Source of the DNA: Octopus vulgaris
Lineage: Eukaryota
Reading direction: 5' to 3'
DNA length: 64,000 nt
Assembly (NCBI GenBank): GCA_951406725.2
Contig: OX597825.1
Location: 3,968,001 to 4,032,000, forward strand
The translations under genes were made by a program, and so were the position numbers. The notes beneath the pieces were generated by a model. It was given only the letters and a program-made list of their open reading frames with translations, had not been told where the DNA came from and did not search any database. This document shows positions 19,437-61,569 of the stretch, piece by piece; position 1 is the stretch's first letter; each line of letters opens with the position of its first letter.

Positions 19437-20519
19437 AACTTTTCATATATTTTCTGTAGCCCGTCAGTACACCGAAAAGGCAATCTATGGGAGAGTTTAC
19501 CCTGAACTGTACGGATATACAATGTGAATAAACACGTTGAAATCTGCCGGAACGTCTTAAGTAGGTGTACGCATATATTTGTTTCGATACCCGCTGTTTC
19601 ACGCGCTCGGAACGAAGCATTCATTACACGCTTCTCGCACAAAAAAGAAATATGCAGCCAAGTATTAATTGAAGTCTGCAAGAATGCTTGTAGTTCAAAC
19701 TGTGTTTGTAAAGTTAGGACAGAGCGAATGAAAAATTTGTGTTACTGCCAATATTTAACAGGAATTCGTTTTCATGACCATACCAATTCTATTATGCCCA
19801 TATAACATTCCACATATACAGAGAATTCCTTCAATATGCAATTCTAGGTAATTTGAACCCCTGTGAGTTTTATGCTATTATCTATCATAAACTTTGGTCT
19901 GTTCTTATTAATTTAAATATAAAACAAAGTAACAGTATAACTCTATAACAGTATTTTACCTACCACAAAATTTGTAACAATTTCTGAAAGCATTATACTT
20001 GGCAAAGCTCATAAAGTACAGCAAAGAACACCGATTATTCATGTACGTCTTATCCTATCACACTCATTCTTTTCTTTTTTCCTATTCATTTTTCATTTTA
20101 TAAACGATTTTGTGTTCGTTTTTGTGCGCAATGTGTACACACACATTCGTGAAGTTTTTCTCCATCTACGCAATATCATCACGTGGTAAGTAGTAAATAA
20201 CAATGTATTCAGGTTATAAATAATCTTACTCGAGACTATATTCTATAGTCACTCGATCTCTGTGTATTTATCTGTATATACATTAATATGAGTATCCAGC
20301 ATACGTCCAAACACCATACCACGAGCCACGTTACCTGGATATATTGCACCTTGAAATCTGTTTTAGCTATTACTAGCGACAGCTGAAGTCCTTCAGATGT
20401 ACGTCGGTGCTGAAACGAACCATCATTTTCAAATACTGCACTTCTTTTTCTTTTCTTTGATACTGTCTTTTTCAGTTTGTAGAATTATACAATTCTATAT
20501 GTAAGAGATGAGGAATTAT

Positions 20520-20802
20520 GTACATTATTTACAATTGATGGATATTTGTCCTCATCTTGTTTGTTGTTAACACAACTTTTCGGCTATTATACCCTCCAGT
20601 CTTCATCAGGTGTCTTGGGTAAATTGCGAACCCTGTTTCGAACTTTCCCCAAGACACCTACTGAAGGCTGGAGGGTATATCAGCCGAAATTTCCCCAAGA
20701 TACTTGATGAGGATTGGAGGGTATATCAGCCGAAAGGTTGTGTTAACAACAAACAAGATGAGGACAAATATCCGTCAAATGCATTTAATGTAAATAATAT
20801 GT
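20520..20802. mobile_element. Penelope-like terminal fold-back with three degenerate minimal hammerhead motifs
   Basis: Inverted arms of about 100 bp. The minus arm reads GACAC-CTGATGA-AGACTG..TAGCC-GAAAAGTT-GTGTT. The plus arm has a 46-bp tandem duplication of the same motif (20644-20689 and 20690-20747). Confidence 0.7.
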
Positions 20803-21367: not shown

Positions 21368-21535
21368 TGTCCGGTAATCTTTCGTCACACACCTGTGACA
21401 TCTTCAGCGACGCTTCCGCGTGTGTTCTTGTTCCACTTACTCCATTCTGTTTTTTTAACATACGTATGTTTATGTGCGCATCCAGGAAGGAAACGTGTCG
21501 CAGAATAGGTTACGAATGTATGACGAAAGATTTCC

Positions 21536-21540
<5 letters not shown>
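21368..21540. mobile_element. Penelope-like terminal fold-back with a hammerhead-like core
   Basis: Minus strand of 21368-21413: GTCG-CTGAAGA-TGTCACAGGTGTGTGAC-GAAAGATTACCGGACA. A degenerate inverted mate lies at 21494-21540. Confidence 0.55.
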
Positions 21541-38489: not shown

Positions 38490-38716
38490 TGCTCATAAGT
38501 CATTTAAAACATACAAAAATCGTTAGATTCACTTCAAAATTTTAATTTAATTTGCCAAAATATTTCCGTCGCTGTCAGACCGCAACCTGTTCACTGACGA
38601 AACTCCTTGCTATCAGTGAACAGGTCGCGGTCTCAAAGCGACGAAAATATTTTGGTAACTTATATTTAAATGTTAAAGTGAATGTAACGGTTGTTTTTTT
38701 TAATGGCTTATAAGCA
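38490..38716. mobile_element. Fold-back element with about 105-bp imperfect arms, Penelope-terminal-like
   Basis: Arms 38490-38597 and 38613-38716. The right arm reads GTGAACA-GGTCGC..GCGAC-GAAA, a decayed hammerhead-like core. Confidence 0.6.
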
Positions 38717-38804
38717 TTTTCCATGCTGCAATTGTTTACGTTCCAGTACACAAACTAAGATCAGGCCGCTTGCTACGCAAGTACATCTCCGTAAGATCTA
38801 TATA

Positions 38805-38855
<51 letters not shown>

Positions 38856-38974
38856 ACAATCAAGGAACGGCCATAATAGGCCATTCACCCACTAGAAATA
38901 ACAGCCAAAGCTTCAACCGCAAATAAAAATTAATTCCGTAAACCAGGAGAAAATTTAAAAACATTTACCCTGTA

Positions 38975-39081
38975 ATTTCTTATACGATGTACCGTTTCAT
39001 CTGCTGATTAATGGTAAACTAACCTGATTAAATTAAATCAAGCCAATCTTCCAAAGGCCCTCAGATTCTTCAGTAAGAAAT
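38975..39081 (-). ncRNA. Type I hammerhead ribozyme (inverted copy)
   Basis: Reverse complement of 39809-39915 with an intact core. Confidence 0.85.
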
Positions 39082-39808
39082 AGCCCAAGTCGGAACAGAT
39101 ATTTTCACGAGGCATTTCCGACCTTGCCAAGGTTATATCTGACCTAAAATTTTCAAATCGTCGCACTCGCGCCAAATTTATCGGCAGCAAATAAATATAA
39201 GCCGTCGATTCCATTACGGAATTAACCAGAAAATTCATAATTAATCAATATAGGGTGCCAAAAAAATTTTGTAGAATTTTTTTGCCACCAGCGGCCTAGT
39301 GGGAAAAAATTAAATAGTCATAGACCATTTTTAAGTTCAACATCAACAATCAAGGAACGGATTTAATTTAATCAGGTTAGTTTACCATTAATCAGCAGAT
39401 GAAACGGTACATCGTATAAGAAATTACAGGGTAAATGTTTTTTAATTTTTCTCCTGGTTTACGGAATTAATTTTTATTTGCGGTTGAAGCTTTGGCTGTT
39501 ATTTCTAGTGGGTGAATGGCCTATTATGGCCGTTCCTTGATTGTTGATGTTGAACTTAAAAATGGTCTATGACTATTTAATTTTTTCCCACTAGGCCGCT
39601 GGTGGCAAAAAAATTCTACAAAATTTTTTTGGCACCCTATATTGATTAATTATGAATTTTCTGGTTAATTCCGTAATGGAATCGACGGCTTATATTTATT
39701 TGCTGCCGATAAATTTGGCGCGAGTGCGACGATTTGAAAACTTTAGGTCAGATATAACCTTGGCAAGGTCGGAAATGCCTCGTGAAAATATCTGTTCCGA
39801 CTTGGGCT

Positions 39809-39915
39809 ATTTCTTACTGAAGAATCTGAGGGCCTTTGGAAGATTGGCTTGATTTAATTTAATCAGGTTAGTTTACCATTAATCAGCAGATGAAACGGTA
39901 CATCGTATAAGAAAT
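39809..39915 (+). ncRNA. Type I hammerhead ribozyme, predicted cleavage after 39907
   Basis: Stem I ATTTCTTA/TAAGAAAT; CTGAAGA 39817-39823; stem II ATCTG...CAGAT; GAAA 39892-39895; stem III CGG-TACA-TCG; GTA 39905-39907. Confidence 0.88.
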
Positions 39916-40299
39916 TACAGGGTAAATGTTTTTTAAATTTTCTCCTGGTTTACGGAATTAATTTTTATTTGCGGTTGAAGCTTTGGCTGTTATTTCTAGT
40001 GGGTGAATGGCCTATTATGGCCGTTCCTTGATTGTTGATGTTGAACTTAAAAATGGTCTATGACTATTTAATTTTTTCCCACTAGGCCGCTGGTGCCAAA
40101 AAATTCTACAAAATTTTTTTTGCCACCCTAAATTGATTAATTATGAATTTTCTGGTTAATTCCGTAATGGAATCGACGGCTTATATTTATTTGCTGCCGA
40201 TAAATTTGGCGCGAGTGCGACGATTTGAAAATTTTAGGTCAGATATAACCTTGGCAAGGTCGGAAATGCCTCGTGAAAATATCTGTTCCGACTTGGGCT

Positions 40300-40406
40300 A
40301 TTTCTTACTGAAGAATCTGAGGGCCTTTGGAAGATTGGCTTGATTTAATTTAATCAGGTTAGTTTACCATTAATCAGCAGATGAAACGGTACATCGTATA
40401 AGAAAT
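40300..40406 (+). ncRNA. Type I hammerhead ribozyme, predicted cleavage after 40398
   Basis: Same sequence as the copy 491 bp upstream (CTGAAGA at 40308, GTA at 40396-40398). Confidence 0.88.
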
Positions 40407-40628
40407 TACAGGGTAAATGTTTTTTAAATTTTCTCCTGGTTTACGGAATTAATTTTTATTTGCGGTTGAAGCTTTGGCTGTTATTTCTAGTGGGTGAATG
40501 GCCTATTATGGCCGTTCCTTGATTGTTGATGTTGAACTTAAAAATGGTCTATGACTATTTAATTTTTTCCCACTAGGCCGCTGGAGGCAAAAAAATTCTA
40601 CAAAATTTTTTTTGCCACCCTATATTGA

Positions 40629-40660
<32 letters not shown>

Positions 40661-41630
40661 ACCAAGAAAAAAGCAACAATAACGGATCGGTAGTCTAGTA
40701 CAAGTGTTTCATACCATAAACATTTTATTTAAAGCTGCAAATATTACAGCAAATATAATGTTAAGTATTCATCAGCTAAATCACATATAGGTTTTCCAAA
40801 CATCTTAGAGAGTGTAAATATCCTTATGAAGTTATAGTAGTGAGTTCCATGAATCTGAAGTAAGATTCCAAGCAGACTCTATATGTTTTTCCAACAATAC
40901 AAAGTTTTTAAATTGATTATTAACATCCCAGAGAAGATAAATCTACTCATAAAGATGTGGATATAAGTTCCAAGAGACATGAGGAAAGATGCTGGTCATA
41001 CCATGGTTAAGTTCGCATCTAACTGTTGCAGGCAAAATTCTATAGTAGCAAGTAAGACAACGGTGGGTAGGTTTAGCTAAAGCAAAGGACATCAGGAGGA
41101 AAGAAATGGGGATGTAAGAAGGAATAAAGATACCACAGACACAGGTCAGTCTATATTTGTGGTGACAGAAAATCTAGGTCAGTGTAGAAGGAATCTTAAA
41201 TTCTTAAAAGAACTGTAAGTTTGACCACCACTAGCTCTGAACTGAGAAACTCACAGAAATAATGGTGGAATTAAGAATACAGGAAGATCAAAGGAAAGCA
41301 CTAAAGGGGTCATAGGTTATCGGTAGGGCGAGATACAGTAAGAGAATTAAGGTTAACACTAGAATAGAAGGTTATTTATTTATTATTGTTTCTATTTTAA
41401 CTTATGTTTATATATGGTAAGAAGGAATTTAGGTCAACATCTAGAGGTCAAATGAATTCAATAGCAACTGGTAGGGGAATCTTACTTATTCAAAATTTAT
41501 AGTGAAAATCAAATGTATCACTAAGGGAATAGTATTACATGTTAAATTCAGAATAGAGTTAGGAAAGATTAGCAGTTTATATGCTTTAAGTAATGTTAAT
41601 TAAATTGTCTATAAAGTCAATTAAAAAATT
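40661..41630 (-). mobile_element. Decayed Penelope-like element (GIY-YIG region and terminal repeat)
   Basis: Minus strand PWYDQHLSS and KLCIVGK recall the RWxxHxSSF and CxLCxxEK motifs of PLE endonucleases. AGCTGATGAA near 40770-40778, then a T-rich tail into (TA)n. Confidence 0.45.
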
Positions 41631-61001: not shown

Positions 61002-61569
61002 AGGCGACGAGCTGGCAGAATCGTTAGCGCGCCGGGCGAAATGCGTAGCAGTATTTCGTCTGCCGTTACGTTCTGAGTTCAAATTCCGCCGAGGTCGACT
61101 TTGCCTTTCATCCTTTCGGGGTCGATAAATTAAGTACCAGTTACGCACTGGGGTCGATGTAATCCACTTTATCTGTTTGCCTCTCCTTGTTTGTCCTCTC
61201 TGTGTTTAGCCCCTTGTGGGTAATAAACAAATAGGTATTTCGTGGGTCGCTACGTTCTGACTTAAAATTCCGCCGAGGGTTACTTTGCCTTTCATCCTTT
61301 CTATGTTGATTAAATAAATACCAGTTTCGCACTGGGGTCGATGTAATCGTCTTAAACCGTTTGTCTGTCCTTGCTTGTCCCCTCTGTGTAGCCCCTTGTG
61401 GGTAGTAAAGAAATAAGTATTTCGGCTGTCTTCACGTTCTGTATTCAAATGCCGCTGGAGTCGACTTTGCTTTCATCCTTTAGAGGTCAATAAATTAATT
61501 ACCAGTTGTGTACTGGGGTGGATCAAATCGACTGCCACCCTCCCACCAAAATAGTGCCTATAGTAGAAA
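61002..61569 (+). mobile_element. SINE family A trimer: one headed unit plus two headless tandem units
   Basis: GTATTTCG...GCCTTTCATCCTTT...CTGGGGT recurs about every 185 bp (61050, 61235, 61417). Confidence 0.85.

Follow-up and report, generated by a model that had tools for sequence, protein, structure and literature searches.

Paired, fixed ends of an octopus retrozyme family point to twin priming by a Penelope-like enzyme on one hammerhead RNA

The window, i.e., the 64-kb stretch of Octopus vulgaris DNA that was analysed, contains a real, young retrozyme insertion, which is one copy of an abundant non-coding mobile repeat. Copies of this family have 3' ends at two fixed sites that occur in pairs, the two arms of a copy are coupled in how far they extend, their 5' ends show a sharp edge at the predicted ribozyme cut, and variants are shared between the arms of a locus. 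It is very likely that these copies arose by twin priming on one RNA. As an explanation of the whole, insertion by twin priming of a Penelope-like (PLE-like) enzyme on one hammerhead RNA is the reading that we consider probable.

Organization of the Locus

Positions in the repeat unit (u) are counted from the predicted hammerhead cut, with window position 39417 as u1. The left arm (A-arm, 38852..39360, minus strand, 509 bp) runs from u114 to u132, which corresponds to 1.04 units, and the right arm (B-arm, 39360..40633, plus strand) from u435 to u234, or 2.6 units; TRF reports a tandem period of 491 with 2.6 copies at 98%. The arms meet 5' to 5' in an inversion junction at 39360, where a single G common to both blocks represents a microhomology of 1 nt. 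Depending on whether it is counted from 39360 or 39361, the plus block measures 1274 or 1273 bp. An earlier, sequence-only reading had described two blocks of 509 and 1273 bp that meet at 39360/39361 with 1 nt of microhomology, and all its coordinates for them hold.

As that reading also stated, both outward 3' ends run into (AT)n, with target tracts (neither assigned to a strand) at 38799..38853 on the left (27.5 copies by TRF) and 40632..40660 on the right (14.5 copies); a target-site duplication is unreadable within (AT)n. The ends fall at different positions of the unit, u132 and u234, both away from the predicted cut sites. The A-arm ends at fixed site A (priming site A, 38852..38883, minus strand), where a short hairpin (u101-115) is followed by the end at u132, the ends being observed and the hairpin taken from the predicted fold. 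The B-arm ends at fixed site B (priming site B, 40583..40633, plus strand), where a long A/T hairpin (u186-221) precedes the end at u234. Within the A-arm lies a complete type I hammerhead (38975..39081, minus strand) with a predicted cut between 38983 and 38982. The B-arm contains a complete type I hammerhead at 39809..39915 (plus strand, predicted cut after 39907) and a second complete one at 40300..40406 (plus strand, predicted cut after 40398), and a further plus-strand cut is predicted after 39416. The hammerhead of the A-arm and the first of the B-arm are assigned by motif position together with stem and core conservation, the second of the B-arm by motif position.

No further match to the 491-bp unit was found anywhere else in the window. 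In contigs from four DNA runs, and from four others presumed to be RNA, the junction is unbridged and no empty site was found, with the restriction that contigs cannot show absence. The right flank (window 40660-41300) is repetitive and has a high contig depth, and no long ORF was found in it. Elsewhere in the window, at 61050-61533, a 184-bp unit occurs in 2.7 tandem copies; we presume that it resembles a cephalopod SINE.

The Repeat Unit and Its Ribozyme

The hammerhead of the unit is of type I and consists of a stem I of 8 bp, a CUGANGA core, a stem II of 5 bp, GAAA, a stem III of 3 bp and a GUA cut site, with stem II closed by a long hairpin extension of about 58 nt. The core and the three stems are kept in 79 distinct sequences, in which variation occurs at N7 and H17, and the 11 core ribozyme positions show a mean of 0.4 deviations, compared to 4.7 elsewhere. 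Rfam gave no hammerhead match for the unit and returned only sub-threshold matches of a fold-back miRNA type, a miss that is probably explained by the long stem II; a search for a relative of the ribozyme with a short stem II yielded 0 matches. The antisense strand lacks a hammerhead core, other ribozyme types having been checked via Rfam only, and the unit is thus without the ribozymes in both polarities that characterize a viroid-like ambisense replicon. The circular monomer is predicted to fold with z=-5.0 relative to 60 shuffles, which speaks in favour of a circle.

Neither the unit nor the arms contain the RT and GIY-YIG ORF of an autonomous PLE, and among the 40 longest frames listed there is none of at least 150 aa from the unit. 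Contigs of the four runs guessed to be RNA cover the unit, though ends, strand and circles are not readable from contigs. Judged by its sequence, the unit has the features of a non-LTR retrozyme: its tandem units are low in GC, measure a few hundred bp and each carry a single type I hammerhead, and they are non-coding, dispersed and mobile.

Paired Ends Across the Family

A search of the octopus genome itself (2.8 Gb) returned 1117 candidate places on many contigs, of which 40 were scored. Exact-pattern counts gave 238 site-A ends with a strict motif and 667 site-B ends on the forward strand, which corresponds to roughly 1300 in all; the reverse-strand count for site B is inflated by gap lengths. 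The stretch is present in runs under three species labels. A total of 158 loci was taken in listed order, comprising 40 best matches, 80 loci from the A-end list and 38 from the B-end list; the longest arm among them spans 9 units.

In the 40 best-match loci, which were not chosen by their ends, 75 of 79 blocks adjoin (AT)n, in line with the Penelope-type insertion into (AT)n that had been proposed from the window alone. Of the 75 AT-flanked arms, 36 have their end at A (u124-137, in almost all cases u132) and 35 have it at B (u228-242, with the site itself placed at u232-237), while 4 stop elsewhere. Permuted ends at AT dinucleotides had been expected, but 71 of these 75 arms stop at A or B despite the presence of 48 AT dinucleotides in the unit. 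Site B is located 105 nt downstream of site A, a hairpin precedes each priming site by 11-17 nt, and the ends could pair with an (AT)n primer over only about two bases.

The inverted junctions predicted to be frequent are so indeed, with 120 tail-out pairs among the 158 loci. A and B are combined in 113 of these 120 pairs (27/32, 62/63 and 24/25 by sample): loci selected for A have B as the partner in 62 of 63 cases, and loci selected for B have A in 24 of 25. Since the partner rule holds under both selections, independent RNAs cannot account for both. The different ends of the two arms in the window locus are accordingly a rule of the family and not chance, and the fixed pairing agrees with the earlier proposal that priming took place twice, internally and on opposite target strands. 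All other chains consist of one arm; in several of these, the flank contains a B end that is inverted and very short, and (AT)n is found on the 5' side as well in 27 of 43 single arms. An inverted 5'-truncated copy, a one-sided tail and an AT-rich or microsatellite target, the signature of PLEs, are thus all observed.

Coupling of the Arms and Structure of the Junctions

Among 234 arms not chosen for length, 61 of the 200 at risk stop at the first cut site (u-3..u40), versus about 6% per equal upstream window. The edge is sharp, with 8 arms ending at u1-5, 11 at u6-10 and 0 at u-4..0. This edge would represent the in vivo footprint of hammerhead cleavage, and about a quarter of the arms would have run off an RNA whose 5' end is the cut site. 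In the 93 pairs not chosen for length, both arms stop in u-3..u40 in 23, both cross in 47 and 6 are mixed (Fisher p=3e-13), while in the other 17 one arm ends earlier. A pause caused by folding would hit the arms separately, yet the arms are coupled, which argues for two primers on one molecule that was either 5'-cleaved or not.

The junctions of 109 simple pairs show an overlap of 1-5 nt in 49, a larger overlap in 10, a blunt joint in 9 and inserted bases in 41, where the overlaps are BLAST-extended and therefore approximate. Outside the cut-site class, 5' ends are scattered among copies. The plus block of the window locus had been said to start inside stem II: u435 does lie in the hairpin extending stem II, but with the 5' ends of other copies scattered this position is incidental. 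Four junctions (L092, L101, L106, and L131) carry inserted patchworks of the u21-34 A/T run between the arms, reminiscent of repeated slip-and-copy joining.

The tail-out arrangement could also be the result of a single first-strand cDNA that folds back or switches template onto itself, with the inverted arm as its second strand (the self-priming idea, PMC3846280). In 27 of the 109 pairs, neither arm falls within the other, which excludes fold-back copying for those 27. In addition, the A-arm is the longer-reaching one in 40 pairs and the B-arm in 39, and hundreds of bases are jumped at most junctions. The A-arm of the window locus is contained in its B-arm, as fold-back copying would have it, and outside the cut-site class the 5' ends of the two arms lie within 10 nt of each other in 9 of 86 pairs, compared to 1.3 expected; coincident ends are, however, also expected from a common RNA end or from one RT catching the other. 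Overall, we regard fold-back copying as highly improbable, and two primers on one RNA as the very likely source of the arms.

Template of the Long Copies

Arms longer than one unit are present in 44 of the 93 pairs, including 23 in which both arms are of such length. The sequence-only reading had deduced copying over more than one turn of a circle from the window locus. Copying past unit length is evident, up to 9 units, but the circle is likely for the family only, and the fraction of about a quarter of arms derived from cut-site-ended RNA falls outside it.

Shared variants were assessed in 107 pairs, leaving out L033 (a locally duplicated complex locus) and 91 homopolymer or hairpin positions. 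Divergence is 0.32% within arms, 0.53% between the arms of one locus and 3.3% between loci, and in 282 of 307 informative cases a common variant is fixed in every pass of the two arms. Rare variants compared between arms, small in number, are fixed in 6 cases, register-matched in 1, of other patterns in 6 and single in 88; within arms, they are found in all passes in 21 cases, in some passes in 7 and in one pass in 113. Transcripts of a genomic array predict register-matched variants, whereas a repeated monomer predicts fixed ones. A few pairs (L035, L037, L076, L122, and L167) have different alleles on the two arms. In L035, L040 and L175 rare variants alternate every second pass, as from a dimer circle, in cases too few to count.

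Twin priming may also have made the long copies from linear multimeric RNA, either by read-through of an uncleaved array or from circle-derived concatemers produced by a host polymerase. Uncleaved RNA is the main substrate in vitro (PMC11167929), and multimeric retrozyme RNAs exist in axolotl (PMC7229834). In our data, a mild excess of arms stops where the cut site is crossed for the second time (13/72 versus 8.9%, p=0.01), which is what partly cleaved linear dimers would give. These stops are not common to both arms, however: among 9 A+B pairs, the two arms stop together in 0, and in 4 the partner extends further. Array transcripts should moreover bring unit-private variants into both arms in register, and there is 1 such case against the 6 fixed ones; no long master array was found among the first 100 listed internal matches, with 9 units as the longest arm in the 158 loci. 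The window locus itself fits a linear multimer, in that its minus arm shares the hairpin variants u207 and u216 with only one of the three plus passes. A single circle does not predict this pattern, so that the locus is ambiguous; its mosaic may have come from a mixed multimer, from gene conversion across the junction or from hairpin errors, and u216 varies sporadically in 6 loci. Taken together, linear multimers appear unlikely to us; the evidence against them bears on array transcripts, and circle-derived concatemers may have served as templates. A monomer circle is likely the foremost template of the long copies at the family level, and we favour, with moderate confidence, a circle as their main template.

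Arrays could also be formed in other ways, none of which convinces us, and which even combined we judge to have very little chance of being correct: linear cleaved monomers copied with precise end-to-end template jumps, later expansion of single units by unequal exchange, or a chimera of the assembly. Cleaved monomers would clearly act as templates, but the cut site is crossed seamlessly, without indel, in 326 of 329 cases, whereas template jumps of RTs usually add or lose bases, as in R2. Some partial variant patterns (L031, L175) could stem from later duplication, a process that would not make both arms cross the cut site together. In the case of a chimera, a strict A+B rule at more than 100 loci with locus-specific variants on both arms would be unexpected, and many minus/plus joints of the unit are found in contigs of independent DNA runs.

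Coding Families and Other Fold-Backs

The genome also contains two abundant coding families with open frames of up to 774 and 869 aa, both of which we take to be PLE-like on the basis of motifs and geometry. Pfam gave a sub-threshold GIY-YIG match for one of them and nothing for the other. As to a coding partner, the 3' regions of the two families (60 loci) show no homology to the unit. The 3' region of one family loosely resembles site A, which was rejected as a link, with no end located there. The GIY-YIG-like family shows the signature of the retrozyme: at (AT)n, one end is short and the other extends about 37 nt further, and the two are paired in 7 of the 7 loci with both arms in view. This family (L219-L248), with frames up to 869 aa and tail-out pairs whose tail measures about 37 nt, is very young, as all 150 of the 150 scored matches show 100% identity over 107 aa, and active protein for in vitro studies might be obtained from it. 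In the second young PLE-like coding family (L189-L218), frames of 727 aa recur and the 3' region is long, at about 1 kb.

At L241:2315-2700, at the end of a coding PLE-like copy, there is a fold-back from a sister family that resembles u9-u254 at 65% (E 1e-14) and has equivalent long and short ends in (AT)n. In the window, the fold-backs at 20515-20798, 21368-21540 and 38490-38716 are true inverted repeats, 76-80% alike, that belong to other, older families. The same tail-out geometry had been attributed to the fold-backs at 20520, 21368 and 38490; their polarity is readable at the first two from hammerhead-like motifs, and the geometry is only plausible at 38490. Hammerhead-like cores are present in the first two, and many of the loci retrieved contain the first and the third again.

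Discussion

For metazoan non-LTR retrozymes, mobilisation by PLEs with circRNAs as templates has been proposed (PMC7229834; bioRxiv 10.64898/2026.07.22.740005), as have circles as templates for more-than-unit cDNA (PMC4209133, PMC7229834), and retrozymes have been tied to pLTRs (Li, Clavereau and Pollet, 2026, bioRxiv 10.64898/2026.07.22.740005). The octopus element resembles these metazoan retrozymes in its non-coding, low-GC unit, which is a few hundred bp long, contains a single type I hammerhead and is dispersed as monomers to multimers (Cervera and de la Pena, 2020, PMC7229834). Compared to the published non-LTR retrozymes, as far as their accessible descriptions go, the octopus family adds paired ends that are fixed at two sites, an edge of 5' ends at the cut site and a stem II with an extension. 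Insertion ends, inverted arms and (AT)n targets are unmapped in the accessible parts of the retrozyme accounts (PMC7229834; bioRxiv 10.64898/2026.07.22.740005). Li et al. favour local tandem expansion after insertion (bioRxiv 10.64898/2026.07.22.740005), against which the coupling of the octopus arms argues.

EN+ PLEs are described with an inverted copy, a one-sided tail of 30-40 bp and a preference for (TA)n, a geometry that has been ascribed to self-priming or to endonuclease resolution (PMC3846280, PMC8557442). In vitro, the PLE protein Poseidon of Anolis cleaves and extends both strands, with two internal start sites that bound the tail, prefers uncleaved RNA and shows no difference in start site between the strands (PMC11167929). 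According to the accessible part of the same report, ribozyme cleavage is not needed and no RNA-seq reads end at the cut (PMC11167929); in contrast to these in vitro and RNA-seq data, the genomic record of the octopus has the ribozyme cut setting the template's 5' end. The octopus family shares with EN+ PLEs that have an inverted pLTR the inverted 5'-truncated copy, the tail at one end only, the (TA)n preference and the two internal initiation sites (PMC3846280, PMC8557442, PMC11167929). It differs from the EN+ PLEs, as described in the accessible sources, in that the element is without an ORF, the tail is about 105 nt instead of 30-40, and both arms may be multi-unit.

In twin priming of L1, two target 3' ends prime on one RNA, and microhomology joins the 5'-to-5' inversion that results. 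This occurs occasionally, as a by-product that involves the poly(A) end and a variable internal site and yields non-overlapping segments. In the octopus family, by contrast, most insertions would have arisen in this way; the two sites are fixed and internal, and the sequences of the arms overlap. A literature search, mostly at the level of titles and abstracts and with few subscription journals, found no account in which twin priming is applied to PLEs or the insertion ends of retrozymes are mapped; relevant data may be contained in Fig. S2 of PMC11167929 and in Fig. S9 of PMC7229834. The element class and the PLE link are already in print, and the mechanistic record is new as far as this search reaches.

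On the basis of the paired ends and coupled arms, a Penelope-like RT/endonuclease likely cuts both strands of an (AT)n tract, and both target ends would be extended on one RNA, one from site A and the other from site B. On an RNA that is cleaved by the ribozyme and unligated, both cDNAs would run off at u1. On an RNA that is covalently continuous over the cut site, most likely a ligated monomer circle, both cDNAs would go one to nine turns, as in the window locus. Tail-out arms would then result from the joining of the 3' ends of these two first-strand cDNAs, via a short microhomology or with a few bases inserted. In this scheme, the enzyme, cleavage, ligation, strand displacement and end joining are what we infer. 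It may further be that PLE integration is programmed twin priming, a generalization for which we see the prospects of being right and wrong as evenly balanced. One RNP would keep one RNA bound at two fixed sites and extend the two ends of a double-strand cut, and the retrozyme template would usually be a ribozyme-made monomer circle round which two polymerases chase each other. This one process would account for inverted pLTRs, one-sided tails and tandem arrays alike, with hammerhead cleavage and ligation setting the length.

How PLEs make inverted one-tailed copies, and whether retrozyme circles template retrotransposition, are questions left open in the accessible literature (PMC8557442, PMC11167929, PMC7229834). 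In the octopus, hundreds of young copies record the reaction, with two exact priming sites, a putative in vivo cleavage footprint and a small substrate of 491 nt. The priming sites and the 491-nt substrate make the models separable in the existing in vitro assay.
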